Assembly: GCA_963717465.1 (NCBI GenBank)
Contig: OY970340.1
Span: 2,080,001-2,144,000 of the forward strand
DNA: 64,000 bases
Direction of reading: 5' to 3'
Source of the DNA: Candidatus Bathyarchaeota archaeon
Lineage (GTDB): Archaea; Thermoproteota; Bathyarchaeia; Bathyarchaeales; Bathycorpusculaceae
Positions 5,100-31,637 of this stretch are shown here, in pieces (within the stretch, counting starts at the first letter, position 1; the number at the start of each line of letters is the position of its first letter). Below the pieces are notes generated by a model that saw only the letters and a program-made list of their open reading frames with translations, had not been told where the DNA came from and did not search any database. Position numbers and translations under genes: made by a program.

Positions 5100-5267
5100 C
5101 TATTTGCTAGAAAACAGCGCGGTCGGCATAAATCGGCAACATAAAGTTTTTTTTCTTTCTCTGAGAAGCAATCCTTGACCTCTTATACTTTCGGCGAGCG
5201 TTTTGAGTAAGGAAGTAACTTGGGTCGCTTCATTGGTTTATAAAGTTAAGCCCGTTGCTCGAGTTTT

Positions 5268-5882: not shown

Positions 5883-6447
5883 ACAATTTTTCCCTACTAA
5901 TCCCTATTTTGTACAACGCCAACAAAATTACAAACCCAATTATGCATCCAGGTATGCAACTTAAAGCCCATCCAGCGCTAAAAACTGAGAAAGCAAACAA
6001 TGGTCCCTTGCCGAGTAAATTCAATAAGCTTGAAGTACCAATCACTGGAGCAAACAAAAAGAGAGATAGAGGTGCACCGATAAAAATAGTTCCTAAGGGT
6101 TCGGTAAGTGCTGCCAATAAACATTTTCTTTCGCTGAATTTTAAAGATTTAAATAACCAGTAGAAGACGCCTACGATAACGCCTCCTGGTATACCTCCAG
6201 GAAAAGCGTAGAGAGTTCCAGTGCCCAACATGTTACGCACACCTCCGATCGCAATTGCACTGCCCGCCGCCCAGAGCGGTCCTAAAAGTACGCCCATAAT
6301 GGCATTAATCATGTGCTGAGTAGGATTCGCCAATGTGCCTAAAATTGCGAAAGATGTGAATTGAGATAAAACAATTCCCAAAGCGGAAAGAACGATAAAC
6401 AGCGTAAGCTTCCTGAGATAAATTGACCTTTTTTCCATTTTTTTCAT
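5872..6447 (-). CDS. thiW: ECF S-component ThiW (thiazole precursor uptake)
   Basis: PTQHMINAIMGVLLGP, GTGTLYAFPGGIPG, EPLGT; thi operon context. Confidence 0.88.
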   Translation of the reverse strand: MKKMEKRSIYLRKLTLFIVLSALGIVLSQFTSFAILGTLANPTQHMINAIMGVLLGPLWAAGSAIAIGGVRNMLGTGTLYAFPGGIPGGVIVGVFYWLFKSLKFSERKCLLAALTEPLGTIFIGAPLSLFLFAPVIGTSSLLNLLGKGPLFAFSVFSAGWALSCIPGCIIGFVILLALYKIGISREKLFGK

Positions 6448-15064: not shown

Positions 15065-16404
15065 TTGCCCATCTTACCTATAGATACTGGTCGATATGGA
15101 ACCAAGGAAATGTTAAATGTTTTTGTTGAAGAAAACAGGCTTCAAAAATTGCTTGATGTTGAAGCCGCGTTAGCTTTGGCACATGCGGAAGTTGGGAATA
15201 TCCCAAGCAAAGACGCTGAAAAAATTGCTGTGATGGCTTCGACCAAGTATGTTAAAGTAGAACGTGTTAAAGCGATTGAGAAAGAAATTAAGCATGATAT
15301 AGCTTCACTTGTTCGTGCGTTATCTGAGGTCTGTGGTTCAAGCGGTGCTTATGTGCATTTAGGAGCGACGAGTTACGATATTGTGGACACTGCTAACGCG
15401 TTACAGTTAAAAGATGCAGCTTTCAATAATAGAGAAAAAACTAGTTGCTTTGAATGAGATATTGCAAAAACAGGCAAGCCAGTATAAATCCACTGTGATG
15501 ATTGGTAGAACACATGGGCAACATGCTTTACCGATTACTTTAGGCTTCAAATTTGCAGTCTGGGGCTATGAGATCTCACGGCACATGCAACGATTGGAAG
15601 ATTGCAAAAAACGCGTTTTAGTCGGGAAAATAAGTGGAGCAGTTGGTACGCAAGCGGGTTTAGGTGAACATGCTCAGCTTATTCAAGAGCTTGTAATGAA
15701 GCGATTAAACATTGATGCTGCAGAGATTTCAACACAAATTGTTCAACGCGACCGCTACGCAGAATTAATCTGCCTTTTAGCATCAGTTGCCTCTTCGCTG
15801 GAGAATTTTGCGACTGAAATACGAGAACTGCAAAGACCTGAAATAGGTGAACTTTTTGAGTCTTTTGAAGAGAAAAAGCAAGTTGGTAGCTCCACAATGC
15901 CGCATAAACAAAACCCAGAAACATGCGAAAGAGTCTGCGGTTTAGCTAGAATCGTTCGAAGCTTAGTGATTCCATCTTTAGAAGACGTTGTTACTTGGCA
16001 TGAACGGGATTTAACTCAATCCTCAGCTGAACGATTCATTCTTCCAGAATCATGCATCTTACTTGATTACATCCTGAATTTAATGTGTAATATTGTGGCA
16101 AACTTGCGAGTTGACGAGCAGAAAATGCTGCAGAACCTGGAGTTAACTCAAGGAAGAGCAATGTCCGAATCAGTCATGATGGCGCTAACAAGAAAAGGCG
16201 TCAATAGACAAGAAGCCCATGAACTACTCAGAAAACTAGCGATAAAAAGCAATTCTGAAAAACAAGACTTCAAAGACAATTCTCATGGACGACAAATTTG
16301 TAAGCAGCAAGCTGAACGAAAAAGAAATCAACGATGCTTTAAATCCAAAGAAGTACTTGGGGACGGCAATTGAACAAGCCGAAAAATTTGCTAAAACTGA
16401 GTGA
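15065..16404 (+). CDS. purB: Adenylosuccinate lyase (two +1 frameshifts, near 15419 and 16278)
   Basis: HLGATSYD, GRTHGQHA, GSSTMPHKQNP; corrected tail reads DALNPKKYLG. Confidence 0.93.
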
Positions 16405-16795: not shown

Positions 16796-18038
16796 TTATT
16801 TTCTTATTTGTCCATTTCCAAGAATAACGTATTTTGTTGTTGTCAAATGCTGTACGCTCATTGGTCCTCTTGCGTGAAGTTTCTGTGTGCTTATGCCAAT
16901 TTCTGCTCCTAAGCCAAACTGGTTGCCATCAGTGAATCGTGTGGATGCATTCCAGTAAACTGCTGCTGAATCAACTTCCCGTATGAACCGCATTGCCTTG
17001 TCAAAATTGGCTGTTAGAATTGAATCTGAATGTTTAGTTCCGTACTTGTTAATGTGAGCTATTGCTTCAGTTAAGTTTTCAACAACTTTTACGCCCATGA
17101 TTAAATCAAGGTATTCAGTGTACCAGTCTTCTTCACTTGCAGCTTTCACGTCAGGAACAATCTTGCGTGTTTCATTGCAGCCTCTAACTTCTACGCCTTG
17201 CTTTCGAAGAGCAGCAATAACAGTTGGCAAATAACTTTTAGCAATTTTACTGTGAACCAGCAGTTTCTCTGCTGCATTGCAGGTTCCTGGACGTTGACAC
17301 TTCGCGTTAACTACAATAGCAGTTGCCTTCTCTAAATCAGCATCTTCTTCAACGTACACATGGCAATTGCCTGTTCCAGTTTCAATCACAGGAATTCTTG
17401 ACTTTTCCACGACAGTATTTAATCAAGTCAGCTCCGCCACGGGGAATAAGCACGTCAATGTACTCTCGCATACGCATAAGCTCTTCAGCAACGCTTCGCT
17501 CAGGAGAAGCAACTACTTGAACAGCATCCGCAGTAACGCCGCAAGCAATCAAAGCAGATCTTAGCACCTCGCCAATGCTACATTAGAGTTTAATGGCGTC
17601 TGAGCCGCCTCGAAGAATAACAGCATTTCCTGATTTAAGGCAGATTCCTGCTGCATCAGAAGTTACATCAGGGCGTGATTCGTAAATTACGCCAACAACA
17701 CCTAAAGGTACGCGGACTTGGCTGATTATCAAGCCGTTAGGTCTTGTCCACGTGTTAACAATCATGCCTATAGGATCATTTAAGGCTGAGACTTCTCTTA
17801 AGCAGTTTGCCATATTCTGAATTTTGCGTTTATCAAGCAAAAGTCGATCTAAAAGTGAAGCTTTAAGTCCTTTAGCTTTTGCAGCTTCAACATCCGCCTT
17901 GTTGGCCTCAATAATCTTATCCGTATCGGCAACGAGTGCATCAGCCATCTTGCAAAGTACTTGGTTTTTTGTTTCAGAAGAAAGCTTTGCTAACTCGACT
18001 GAAGCTGCTTTTGCTTTCTTGCAGATTTCCAGAATCAT
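16796..18038 (-). CDS. proA: Gamma-glutamyl phosphate reductase (two frameshifts, near 17586 and 17417)
   Basis: PLGVVGVIYESRP, LIPRGG, CNAAE, FGLGAEIGISTQKLHARGP spread over three ORFs. Confidence 0.93.
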
Positions 18039-23024: not shown

Positions 23025-23688
23025 TCAAAAAAGTTTCGTCTGCTGAGTATTTCTACCGTTTAATGCTTTTTTTGCCGGTTTCCATGATTTCCTTATGCAA
23101 TCTGGAAAGTCATTGTTTTTTTTCAGCCATTGATTGATGAAAATCATGGTTTTCTCGTCTGTTAGGTATCCACTTCCAAAATCGCCATACTTATTTCTTA
23201 AGTCAGCTATTTCTTGGTCGCGTTGAACTTTTGCGATAATAGAAGCAGCAGAAACTATCGGGTATATTCTGTCCGCTTTATGCTTAGAGATTATTTTTGA
23301 TTTAGTTGTTAAGCATTCCTGAATGTGCTGTCTAAAACGATCTTCAACGCACGTCTGCTGCGTCAACGTAGACCTCGTCCGGTTTTAGAAAATCAATTAT
23401 TTTCGCCATTGTTTGCGCTTCAAGCCTATTCAGTTTATGGAGTTTTCTTTGACTTTCAACGACCTTATCGATTTCGCTTGGCGCAAGTTTTATCGTATGA
23501 AAACTTTTGGTTAACTTTGTAATTTCAATGTATAATTCTTCACGTTTCTTAGGCGACAAAAGTTTTGAATCTTTCACTCCGAGCTGGCTTAAAAACTGGA
23601 GGTTTTCTGTTTCCAATGCAACTCCCGCAACAACAAGCGGACCAACTACGCATCCACGTCCAGCCTCGTCAACTCCAGCAATTAACAG
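23025..23688 (-). CDS. rnhB: Ribonuclease HII (frameshift near 23349; no canonical start codon)
   Basis: IAGVDEAGRGCVVGPL, GVKDSK, VYVDAAD, VSAASIIAKV, GSGY. Confidence 0.93.
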
Positions 23689-23863: not shown

Positions 23864-23876
23864 AAAGGCTTATAGG
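23864..23876 (+). promoter_or_regulatory. Putative BRE-TATA of the host tRNA-Ala gene
   Basis: AAAGGCTTATAGG about 40 nt upstream of the tRNA 5' fragment. Confidence 0.45.
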
Positions 23877-23912
23877 CTAATGTTACGGGTTATTTTAAAA
23901 GAGCGCCATTTT

Positions 23913-23928
23913 GGGCGGGTAGATCAGT
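23913..23928 (+). pseudogene. 5' fragment (nt 1-16) of host tRNA-Ala(GGC); attL
   Basis: GGGCGGGTAGATCAGT; GGGCGGG pairs with CCCGTCC at 25973-25979, including G3:U70. Confidence 0.88.
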
Positions 23929-24016
23929 ATACGCCCAAAACGAAAGCAACCCGCCCAAAGAAACAATCCAGAAAATAAAAGACGCACTCCAAGCAATCAA
24001 CGAAACCGAAAACCTG

Positions 24017-24958
24017 ATGAAAGCAAAACAAGACGACAACGAACATATAAAAAAGACAAAAAGAACACTAACACGATTAGCATCAGAAACAGACATTTTT
24101 AACCCAACCGCAGTTTTAACATACATAAAAGACTTAAAAAGAGACAAAAAATCAGCCATAAACCAAGACGTAACACCCGACAAACCACTAACAAAAGGCT
24201 ACAAACTAAAAATAATATACGCCTATGCAGTATTTTGCCAAGCCAACGAAATACCTTTCAAACCACCAAAAATAAGTTACGAATCACCAATACCAATAAT
24301 TCCAAGCACAGAAGAAGTCAATCAAATAATAGGATGCACTTCTAACAACTATGCAACAATTTTCACTATAATGAAAGAAACCGCCGTAGAATCAGACGAA
24401 CTACATAAAACATCAAAAAACCAAATTGACAAAGAAAAAGGCATTCTAAGCATTATAGGAAACAAACAACATAGTAACGGAACCTATAACCTCACAATAC
24501 AAACCGCAACAACGCTAAGAATATATTTAGACAAACCAGAAAAGAAAACAAATTTCAAGCGACAAATACCAAAAGAAGAATATCCATTCCCAACAAGAAA
24601 ATCAATAAGCAAAGCATGGTTAGACGCAAGAACCAAAGCATCCATAAAATACCAAAATAAAAACCTCTTAACAATACCATTAAAAAACTTAAGAAACTAC
24701 GCAGGCGCAGTCTATTATTTTACTTATGGCAAAGACGCAATAGCAACACAACAATTTATGAGACATAAAAATTTGCAACAAACAAGCAACTACCTAAGAG
24801 GAATAAAAGGATTCACAATGCGACTACAAAAAATCGGAAAAATCACAACAACCGCGGAAGAAACAATGGAACTAATACTACAAGGATTCAAAGAAGAATC
24901 AGTATTTAATCAAGGAACACCAAACGAAAAACACGTTTTAACAAAAATAAACATATAA
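24017..24958 (+). CDS. Tyrosine recombinase/integrase, divergent
   Basis: KNLRNY, FMRHKN, TSNY; first catalytic Arg position reads ETAVESDEL. Confidence 0.8.
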   Translation: MKAKQDDNEHIKKTKRTLTRLASETDIFNPTAVLTYIKDLKRDKKSAINQDVTPDKPLTKGYKLKIIYAYAVFCQANEIPFKPPKISYESPIPIIPSTEEVNQIIGCTSNNYATIFTIMKETAVESDELHKTSKNQIDKEKGILSIIGNKQHSNGTYNLTIQTATTLRIYLDKPEKKTNFKRQIPKEEYPFPTRKSISKAWLDARTKASIKYQNKNLLTIPLKNLRNYAGAVYYFTYGKDAIATQQFMRHKNLQQTSNYLRGIKGFTMRLQKIGKITTTAEETMELILQGFKEESVFNQGTPNEKHVLTKINI

Positions 24959-24964
24959 ACATAA

Positions 24965-25039
24965 TGGACAAGGGGGGATTTGAACCCCCGACCTCTACAA
25001 TGCCAATGTAGCGTTCATACCAAACTGGACTACTTGCCC
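24965..25039 (-). tRNA. tRNA-Ala(GGC), element-borne, intact
   Basis: GGGCAAG/CTTGTCC-A acceptor with G3:U70, CTACA-TTGGCAT-TGTAG, GGGGG-TTCAAAT-CCCCC; TTTAAA box at 25069-25074; one D-stem mismatch; no encoded CCA. Confidence 0.92.
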
Positions 25040-25333
25040 ATATTTTTTAGTTCTACTCCGTATTACCCTTTAAAGGTTACTAAACAGAAAAGCAAAATAA
25101 AAAAAGGAAAAATAATTATTTATCAACCACCTAAAACACAAAGACAATTAATCAAGCAATAAAAAGCACGGAACAGGTGAACATGCGCTATCACACTTTT
25201 TGCCCACTAAATCACAGTCATATTTCAGGAAAACAGAAAACTAGATTATACACTTAAATGTAAAATACGGGTAAAATTAACAAATCATTCGACCGACCAC
25301 CCAACAATAGAGTTAGCCATTGGTCAATGAATC

Positions 25334-25684
25334 TCATCGATGTTCTATTAGACAGAGTCTGACTCCATTCGGGTCTTCGATAAAGGCACACCTTCCAACG
25401 AGTATGGGAATGGGTTCCATTGTGATCTTAGCACCTTTGGCTCTTAGCTCGTTCAAAGTGGCATTCAAATCCTCTACGTCCACTCCGATTGAATACAACC
25501 CTACTTGATAATGTGGGTCTTCTATAACCTCAATCATGGCATCTCCTTCCCCTTTCAGAAGGGTAATCGTCGATCCTGATCGGGGTTTGTATTGACTATC
25601 AACCGTAAACCCCATGACAGAGGTGTAGAATTTTACCGTTTCTTCCATGTTTTTTACTATCATGGTAGAATATTTAACTTTCAT
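25334..25684 (-). CDS. VOC/glyoxalase family protein
   Basis: [34 protein letters not shown]. Confidence 0.88.
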
Positions 25685-25914
25685 AATTTTAGCAACCTTT
25701 GAATAACTTTTAAAGTTTGCGTTTGAGACAACTGAGGCTTTTTCTTTTTATTAGTTTTTGAAAGCGCAAATAAAATAAACCTGCACTGATGGTAACTTAC
25801 GTTAGAGTGATTGCTATGTCTGGAACAGAAACGTTGCTTCCGTACGTTAACGATAAGAAAAAGCCAACGGAAACGAAAAAACCGTTTTGCACAAAAACAA
25901 TTTGACGACAGGTT

Positions 25915-25983
25915 GATCAGTCTGGTACGATCGCCACGTTGGCATCGTGGAGGCCGCGGGTTCAAATTCCGCCCCGTCCACCA
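25915..25983 (+). pseudogene. 3' fragment of host tRNA-Ala(GGC) including CCA; attR
   Basis: GATCAGTCTGGTACGATC-G-CCACG-TTGGCAT-CGTGG-AGGCC-GCGGG-TTCAAAT-TCCGC-CCCGTCC-A-CCA; local upstream bases cannot form the acceptor stem. Confidence 0.9.
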
Positions 25984-27307: not shown

Positions 27308-28272
27308 TTGGTGTCTCTAAATGGCTTCCGCAAGGATTACTTAAGGCTAAACTTCTCGATCAATGAAATTGTTATACAATTCAAAGAATGGGCTACTGAA
27401 GACACATATATGATACTAAGCAAATGGAACCCTAAAAAGTGGAAAAACGACGTTTTTGCGGTTAAATGTGCAAAACGCGGGAATGATGTTTACCGTAGCA
27501 GGGTTGAGAGTAGATTCAGAGGATTAGCCAATAAGGCTGAGGCATTAGCGTTTTTTAACCCGAAAGCGAGAGGAGCGTTAGCGACCTGAGCATTATGGTT
27601 AACATTGATTTACGATACTGAACTCTACGCTTACAAGGATGCATGGGCGAAGATCGGTGTTGAGTTTAACGGTTTCATTGCTTACGTTAGGAGCCGTTTT
27701 GGTAAGGTTTCGTGTTGTCGGGTGTTTGAGTCTTTTGAGAATGGTTATCCTCATATCCATTGTATTTTGCTTTTTCAAGAATACTCCTTCTTAGTCTTTA
27801 GGGATGGTAAGGGTCACTTTAGAGTAAAAGAGAAAGAGGCTATCGATAGTGTTTGGCATAGTAATGTTGACGTTAAAGCCATGAGTTCTCTGGCTGGCGG
27901 TTTCTCTTACCTTAAGAAATATCTTTTGAAAGGAATAGATTTTGAGAAGGCTGATTTAAAGGGTTTGAAGCCGTTGGCTTTATGTTGGTTGTTTAGGAAA
28001 GGGCTTTTTCTGTTAGTGGCAGTTTCCGTAAGGCGTTATCCGACTTGATAATGGATTTGCAGTAGTCAAACAAGAGGTTGGTTCAGGTTACGCTTTTGGG
28101 TGAGGAGATTGTTGAGGAGAAATTCTATGTGTTAGGTTTTGTTAGTTCCGATGTTATAGGTATTGAAAAGGATTGTTGGTTTGCGATTTTATCCTCTAAG
28201 CAAATTGATTCTTTGAATAGCCATCTATCAAAATTCAAGAATTTTGTGATGGATTTTTCAATCTTGAATTAA
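27308..28272 (+). pseudogene. Rolling-circle (HUH) Rep, interrupted by in-frame TGA 27587-27589 and a shift near 28000
   Basis: Motif I-like LWLTLIY, motif II GYPHIHCIL, motif III YLKKY. Confidence 0.8.
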
Positions 28273-31289: not shown

Positions 31290-31637
31290 GTTTTCTTAAG
31301 AATTATCTTCGGCTTAATTTTGACTTGCGAAGATTTGTAGGCGAATATCAGGATTGGGTTTCTGAAGCTACTTATATGGTTCTTGTTCGCTGGAATAAAG
31401 AGGAATGGAAGAATGATGTTTTCGCCGTTAAAGGTGCTAAGCGAGGAAATGATGTTTACCTAAGCCGAGTTGAGAGTAGATTCAGAGGATTAGCCAATAA
31501 AGCTTTGAGGAGTTAGCGTTTTTTAACCCGAAGGCGAGGGGGGCGTTAGCGACCTGAGCGTTATGGTTAACATTGACTTGCGATACTGAACTCTGCGCTT
31601 ACAAGGAGGCATGGGAAAAGATTGGCGTTGAAGCGCG
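31290..31637 (+). pseudogene. Second, truncated HUH Rep remnant
   Basis: WKNDVFAVKGAKRGNDVY..RVESRFRGLANKA; aligns by eye with 27330-27665. Confidence 0.8.

Follow-up and report, generated by a model that had tools for sequence, protein, structure and literature searches.

The locus described here raises the question of how the alanine codons GCU and GCC are read in an archaeon whose tRNA-Ala(GGC) gene has been cut in two by a small element, and of where the further tRNA-Ala(GGC) gene that lies on that element came from. The window is the whole 64,000-nt stretch of contig OY970340.1 (positions 2,080,001 to 2,144,000, forward strand) of the Candidatus Bathyarchaeota archaeon assembly GCA_963717465.1, referred to below as source genome G000. 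It contains three tRNA calls, two of which are tRNA-Ala(GGC).

Anatomy of the disrupted host gene

The host tRNA-Ala(GGC) gene is present in two pieces, the first 16 nt at 23913-23928 and the rest at 25915-25983, separated by 1,993 bp. The 7-bp exact repeat GATCAGT is found at both ends of the insert, inside the D arm of the host tRNA, and extends to 10 of 11 positions if one mismatch is allowed. The insert holds a tyrosine integrase gene, the replacement tRNA gene and a glyoxalase-family gene, and nothing else. The host pieces and junctions are as follows.

23869..23878, plus strand: TATA-like box of the host tRNA-Ala(GGC), a putative promoter by its position, which now faces into the element
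23909..23940, plus strand: attL, consisting of the host arm (23909-23921), the spacer GATCAG(T) (23922-23927/8) and the element arm (23928-23940)
23913..23928, plus strand: severed 5' stub (16 nt) of the host tRNA-Ala(GGC)
23949..23959, plus strand: second inverted copy of the host arm, an 11-nt exact complement 21 nt past the first (hairpin z -3.45)
25902..25921, plus strand: attR, consisting of the element arm (25902-25914, 7/13 like the host arm) and the repeat GATCAGT (25915-25921)
25906..25983, plus strand: chimeric remnant, element-derived in its first 9 nt and host tRNA from position 10 to CCA (Rfam, 43 bits)

The two arms of attL form 13-bp inverted repeats that match at 11 of 13 positions and flank a spacer that can be read in a 6-bp or a 7-bp register. 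An empty site is present in the same-genus genome G027, where the intact gene differs from the rejoined host gene at 2 of 75 positions and is preceded by the same upstream stretch, including the host TATA-like box. A further stretch of 14 nt, at genome positions 2557366-2557379 within a coding frame, matches the host arm plus spacer (E=0.59); we treated it as a chance match.

ARAGORN calls a tRNA over the chimeric remnant, in which two acceptor-stem positions are unpaired and A3:U70 replaces G3:U70; no TATA-like box was found upstream of it. With a 16-nt stub on one side and a broken acceptor stem lacking a promoter box on the other, neither attL nor attR is predicted to rebuild a functional tRNA.

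The junctions of the insert rest on a single assembly that shows apparent frameshifts in several genes. Three housekeeping genes in the window (15065-16373, 16796-18038 and 23025-23616) are apparently split in this way; RNase HII is among them according to Pfam, and the other two we take to be adenylosuccinate lyase and glutamyl-phosphate reductase. At 23349, a related contig is one base shorter, and indel errors in the assembly are therefore likely.

The tRNA gene carried by the element

The replacement tRNA gene and its surroundings comprise the following features.

24965..25039, minus strand: complete gene for the replacement tRNA-Ala(GGC), without an encoded CCA and convergent with the integrase gene
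25068..25075, minus strand: TATA-like box CTTTAAAG at -36 to -29 of the replacement tRNA, kept in a second copy of the element (L064) despite a diverged surrounding spacer
24935..24964, minus strand: T-rich stretch 3' of the replacement tRNA, a possible archaeal terminator
25334..25684, minus strand: glyoxalase/VOC-family cargo gene of 116 aa (PF00903, E=1e-15; below every NCBIfam cut-off)

Both ARAGORN and Rfam identify the gene as tRNA-Ala(GGC), the latter with 61.3 bits against a gathering score of 29. The original prediction, made from the letters, described an anticodon loop TTGGCAT with G3:U70, the stems GGGCAAG/CTTGTCC, CTACA/TGTAG and GGGGG/CCCCC, and a D arm reading GTCCAGT where the host gene has GATCAGT, and all of these are present. 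The "host copy" with which it compared them does share the anticodon loop and G3:U70, but it is not an intact gene, since its halves lie on either side of the insert. When the host gene was rejoined in silico, the two tRNAs differed at 17 of 75 positions, in agreement with the claim that the replacement is not a recent copy of its target. By inspection of the alignment, 12 of the differences belong to six doubly changed pairs, one converts G-U to G-C, three are in loops, and the remaining one, the C of GTCC, breaks a D-stem pair. The stem changes had been called compensatory; this is true of the six double changes, but not of all 17, because the C of GTCC costs a D-stem pair.

No other intact tRNA-Ala(GGC) was detected in the 3.05-Mb source genome, which is 88% complete by markers, among 48 ARAGORN calls, by BLAST or with a relaxed pattern. 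Since no junction restores the host gene, the tRNA of the insert is therefore the sole intact GGC copy found in the genome. The view of 24965-25039 as a replacement thus stands, the host gene being split and no second intact GGC copy having been found.

Native alleles of congeners as the probable source of the replacement

The replacement tRNA had also been called recoded. In the sense of rewritten on the element, this is not supported: congeners have these stems in native genes on their chromosomes, namely in G128, whose allele is identical to the replacement at 73 of 75 positions, and in G117, the differences being two and three, respectively. Because the stems called recoded are found in native genes, the replacement represents an existing allele and not one made by the element. 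A pattern scan of the genome collection returned eight loci, of which seven are tRNA-Ala(GGC) genes and none has a match to this integrase within 4 kb; most of the records are assigned to Bathyarchaeia. The seven native alleles have the usual host promoter upstream and encode CCA, and three of their loci share the 107-aa gene that is found downstream of the G000 locus. Besides G128 and G117, five genomes carry a second variant (CTGCA), eight positions off in G034, where this was measured, with four of the genes identical; in this mosaic variant the acceptor and T arms are those of the host, and the D and anticodon arms are of the replacement type. Across the genus, 63 of 120 genomes matched the anticodon-arm pattern, and the native genes are host-type except for six; the G117 gene was caught with a looser pattern.

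The replacement is, as judged from its letters, a borrowed allele of this native class that lacks the integration spacer. The D and T arms of the class resemble those of tRNA-Ala(UGC), and a single change private to G117 is found in its GGC and UGC genes alike, which suggests isoacceptor conversion as the origin of the allele.

One of the records, L072, is labelled Methanocella, although its tRNA and promoter are of the type of this Bathyarchaeia genus, and the label may be wrong. A private AAAGT leader of the GAAC-type native alleles, which would alter the binding arm, was dropped from consideration because three GATC-type genes have it as well.

Sideways movement of the allele within the genus

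The seven congeners with the derived allele class at their native locus (L019, L066-L068 and L070-L073) do not form one clade, such a grouping being rejected by the AU test on both rpoB (p=1.6e-38) and pelota (p=1.5e-4). The class needs four changes on the pelota tree (29 genomes) and four on the rpoB tree (28 genomes), the sets for both trees having been chosen to include all seven carriers; the trees conflict in places and base composition is uneven. G079 is absent from the pelota tree, and G067 and G069 are absent from the rpoB tree, for want of a match. A single clade of the five genomes with the CTGCA variant is rejected on rpoB (p=3e-5) and not on pelota (p=0.06).

The sister genomes G096 and G007 (100/100) are particularly informative. 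Their upstream flanks differ at 5 of 60 nt, and their tRNA-Ala(GGC) genes differ at 11 positions, all within positions 11-49. Three more distant genomes, G034, G141 and G092, carry exactly the tRNA of G096, with upstream flanks that are 16-19 differences away from its own. Because the carriers are not one clade and the flank of G096 stays with its sister, we conclude that the allele moves sideways, as a short block that has entered the native locus more than once. From the scattered, block-like distribution it follows that members of the genus exchange a single-copy tRNA gene sideways, whatever the carrier.

Which carrier was involved is a separate matter, and capture from a host, write-back by the element and plain recombination between congeners each fit the distribution. 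One could envision two-way traffic with the element as the donor, in which spacer-less alleles on the element overwrote the native gene again and again by short conversion and so closed these hosts to the element. The four changes on both trees, the rejection of one clade of seven, and the G096/G007 block, in which G096 has the element's letter at 8 of the 11 positions, would all be expected from such a process. The other three changes are foreign to the element, however, and no element with the CTGCA variant was found. The allele of G128 is intermediate between the two element copies (two differences from each, the copies being four apart), so that host capture fits at least as well, and no element would be needed for the block to spread by recombination between congeners or by conversion from the UGC isoacceptor. 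The pelota result for the five CTGCA genomes, together with the tree conflict and the uneven composition, further weakens the case, and we regard the element as a doubtful donor. The broader proposition, that spacer-less tRNA-Ala(GGC) alleles circulate on small integrative Bathyarchaeia elements and return from there, again and again, to the single-copy native gene, is in our judgement possible but improbable. If it were true, a core translation gene would spread sideways under the pressure of an integrase clade whose rewired active site has no first arginine.

Possible protection from the element's own integrase

It had been suggested that the replacement tRNA may be protected from the integrase of its own element. 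Its spacer has two mismatches to the host spacer in six to seven positions, those of L064 and G128 have one in six, and its left binding arm is like the host arm at 9 of 13 positions. At the related locus L053, junctions are found whose presumed spacers differ in the middle. According to the accessible text of a study of actinobacteriophages (PMC10865867), overlap mismatches are strongly deleterious for tyrosine integrases, and the same text reports weak core conservation for the authors' own enzymes. We give about equal weight to the replacement being protected and to its not being so, and would see any protection as a filter on the allele that was kept rather than as recoding.

A stronger version, in which recoding of the tRNA served the element specifically as an escape from its own integrase, is unlikely. 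The reported cost of overlap mismatches (PMC10865867, accessible text) would give such recoding a purpose, and one of the two altered spacer positions, which is absent from G128 and L064, even costs a D-stem pair. Yet 15 of the 17 differences from the host are common to a native allele, five native alleles also have the extra C, there is hardly any change in the left arm, and the L064 spacer makes do with one mismatch.

Further copies and selection on the replacement tRNA

One of 169 candidate stretches in a metagenome scan, L064, is a second copy in which the integrase end is 87% identical and the same tRNA lies at the same position; beyond the integrase-tRNA segment its DNA is unlike that of G000, including at the glyoxalase-family cargo. 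The two replacement tRNAs differ at 4 of 75 positions, among them a compensated 7:66 pair, as compared with 9 of 25 four-fold sites in the adjoining integrase (Fisher p=4e-4). This result indicates that purifying selection acts on the replacement tRNA. Conservation beyond four-fold sites in a diverged copy, together with that of the TATA-like box, also favours the earlier proposal that the tRNA is functional. One contig of run X3 likewise links the integrase end, the tRNA and the promoter (24836-25083; 11 other letters, 3 gaps). As both L064 and the X3 contig stop short of att, one integrated case has been seen. The contigs of four public runs, which cover 6-10% of words, contained no excision or empty-site joint and, among the listed pieces, no attL/attR bridge, a result that carries no weight in either direction. 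Viral contigs gave one weak protein match among 19 candidates and no close relative of the element, and none of 22 pattern matches was a matching tRNA-Ala by ARAGORN or BLAST.

GCT and GCC make up 50% of the Ala codons in G000 open frames of at least 300 aa. The genome also has tRNA-Ala(UGC) and tRNA-Ala(CGC), the CGC gene having the same spacer as the host GGC site, and tRNA-Ala(UGC) might read GCU and GCC by wide wobble, in which case the replacement tRNA would be dispensable. This raises the alternative that the tRNA is incidental cargo, that the host survives by its UGC isoacceptor, and that the tRNA matches the target simply because the element frequents the locus. The retention of the UGC and CGC genes is in keeping with it, as is the finding that no replacement tRNA-Ala accompanies the other related integrases examined. 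What makes it very unlikely is that the tRNA is conserved beyond neutral sites, with its promoter box, across copies with different cargo, and that the GGC anticodon arm is normally kept, being found in 256 of 401 genomes of the class (with one strict pattern) and in 54 of 65 in a sample of the genus. That the host gene still works, by splicing out of the 2-kb insert or trans-splicing of its halves at a bulge-helix-bulge, is highly improbable: the palindromic GATC would let the two repeats form a 4-bp central helix with 3-nt bulges and D-loop insertions are frequent in tRNA genes beside related integrases, but on inspection a bulge-helix-bulge joining the pieces goes no further than that helix (the flanking helices amount to one pair towards the intron and none towards the exon), the 11-nt complement just downstream pairs with the 5' piece instead, and the insert contains a convergent tRNA gene and a likely terminator.

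The integrase and its relatives

The integrase gene lies at the attL end of the insert.

23930..24958, plus strand: tyrosine recombinase; first ATG at 24017, frame open back across attL, the upstream part being conserved coding sequence; catalytic K, R, H and Y present, Glu in place of the first Arg

By sequence it matches PF00589 weakly. A search of solved structures with the single sequence gave no relevant match, and a profile of 46 relatives matched archaeal XerA (4A8E, E=5e-8). The predicted model (pLDDT 90) has a fold like those of XerA and lambda Int; residues 10-32, which precede the ATG, form a helix. The clade departs from the canonical R...HXXR...Y tetrad: the column of the first catalytic Arg has E in 38 and S in 8 of the 46 relatives and R in none, and the H of HXXR is K in all 46. 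The K, the second R, the H and the Y are invariant, and so is an extra histidine two residues past the conserved lysine.

No start codon precedes 24017 in the integrase frame, though the frame is open across attL, and the circle rebuilt from G000 has an in-frame stop at att. The G000 integrase may be unable to make its full-length form, and the G000 element may be a reduced, possibly immobilised form, or the stop may be an assembly error. No close integrase was found in the other 119 genus genomes or in 331 family genomes, the best match being 58% identical at full length and 64% over a part. Of eight related loci examined, six proved to be elements 3.4-7.9 kb long that have direct repeats as their boundaries; the repeats lie just upstream of the integrase and measure 17-22 bp in five cases and 11 bp in one. 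Since relatives reside in repeat-bounded elements, the clade appears to be active. In four of the six, the rebuilt circle has an open integrase frame whose start lies to the left of att, so that att falls within the integrase start. The repeat-bounded elements sit at the end of the RNase P gene or in coding genes; many other relatives are at tRNA 5' ends.

The closest genomic integrase (58%; L024/L053) begins at the 3' end of the RNase P RNA gene, and further att-like repeats 4.3 and 7.0 kb on suggest tandem elements. The tRNA-Pro(GGG) and tRNA-Arg(GCG) genes beside related integrases frequently have D-loop insertions of 35-70 nt, antisense in the integrase frame (L032-L034, L036, L157, L159, L162, L165, L167 and L170); one forms a clear bulge-helix-bulge on inspection, and two have flanking repeats of 5-7 nt instead. 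The tRNA-Ala(GGC) gene is also a conventional target in the genus, with an integrase following it in G022 (L014/L044), and repeats of its 3' half are found 9-10 kb away in G093 and G106 (L097, L098).

Discussion

We consider it very probable that the locus arose by integration into the D arm of a single-copy tRNA-Ala(GGC) gene that was left unrestored, with a borrowed substitute allele carried on the element. A small element of a Bathyarchaeia-type archaeon entered the D arm via its tyrosine integrase and a 6-7 bp core, as the anatomy and the empty site of a congener show. Its arm is too unlike the start of the tRNA to rebuild the gene, and the 3' part has been severed from its promoter. GCU and GCC would then be read through the element's own tRNA-Ala(GGC) under its own promoter, as the single copy, the selection and the conserved box suggest. 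That tRNA is a member of the allele class found at the native locus of congeners, with its UGC-like D and T arms. Lacking the spacer, this class would probably be a poor target, which may or, with equal likelihood, may not have favoured its retention over a copy of the target allele.

The nearest known strategy is tRNA-dependent lysogeny of actinobacteriophages (Guerrero-Bustamante and Hatfull 2024, PMC10865867). As its accessible text describes it, the two systems have in common a tyrosine integrase, a short core in a non-redundant tRNA gene, junctions neither of which restores a tRNA, and a tRNA with the same anticodon on the element. In contrast to those phages, the host here is archaeal, and the element is 2 kb long without virion or repressor genes; the cut lies in the D arm near the 5' end, with a 7-bp exact core as compared with 8-17 bp (their Table 2); and the integrase is XerA-like without an arm-binding domain. 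A further difference from that account is that the replacement can be traced to a native allele of a congener. The insert has neither the repressor nor the lytic genes of a temperate phage. With the four sequence features present and the phage genes absent, we propose that the element works like tRNA-dependent lysogeny without classing it there. Sinorhizobium meliloti prophages that inactivate tRNA-Leu(UAG) (PMC11476347), as far as the accessible text goes, also carry a replacement that resembles tRNAs of other taxa and not the target; theirs is a bacterial system with a central cut, whereas here the matching allele is from the same genus and is also present at the native locus.

Among archaeal systems, the suicidal integrations of the SSV and pTN3 types are said in the accessible text of a review (Badel et al. 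2021, PMC8371274) to restore an uninterrupted tRNA gene, and the tetrad R...HXXR...Y is given there for archaeal integrases. Both types, compared here by description only, have att in the 5' end of the integrase gene, as do four of the six related elements described above, and the pTN3-like ones target the 5' part of a tRNA. They differ from the present case in that the tRNA is not restored here, and in that the first R is replaced by E or S and the H by K. The closest archaeal precedent, on the accessible text of Sugahara et al. 2012 (PMC3293823), is the 1.8-kb recombinase insertion in tRNA-Thr(GGU) of Caldiarchaeum subterraneum, which is likewise archaeal, about 2 kb long, located in the D arm region, and leaves a 5' fragment. 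There, the whole gene is rebuilt at the junction with an extra intron, whereas here a separate inverted gene with its own promoter is supplied; those authors suggest that the changed tRNA-Thr(GGU) gene protects from further integration. In a literature search, mostly of open papers without supplements, we found no archaeal element that leaves its tRNA unrestored and carries a substitute, and nothing on such allele exchange.

The present case extends the strategy of destroying a tRNA gene and supplying a substitute to an archaeal element that is minimal and non-viral and has its target in the D arm, and contrasts with the statement in the accessible review text (PMC8371274) that archaeal integrations restore the tRNA. 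With the only intact copy on the element, it would be hard to delete except by precise excision. The accessible text of the paper that defined the strategy (PMC10865867) leaves open how the substitute tRNA is acquired; because the nearest relative here is a native allele of the same genus, two bases away, the acquisition becomes testable. We regard as the main additions of this work that the replacement has a traceable source and that its allele class spreads sideways.

Other tRNA-associated sequences

In the window, fragments of a replication-protein-like gene (weak PF23343) are found at 27308-28048, right after tRNA-Gln(UUG), and again 4 kb on at 31325-31631; they sit among repeated genes for beta-propeller surface proteins and are probably parts of a decayed element. 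In G016 (L056), a whole tRNA-Glu(UUC) of variant sequence (5105-5182) has a 30-nt 5' piece of tRNA-Glu (6399-6428) 1.2 kb upstream of it; the two are separated by a surface-protein-like gene, with no integrase match at the locus. Elsewhere in G000 (C1, 2554847-2555525), two identical 79-bp copies of tRNA-Thr(GGU) lie 600 bp apart, beside tRNA-Leu(UAG).
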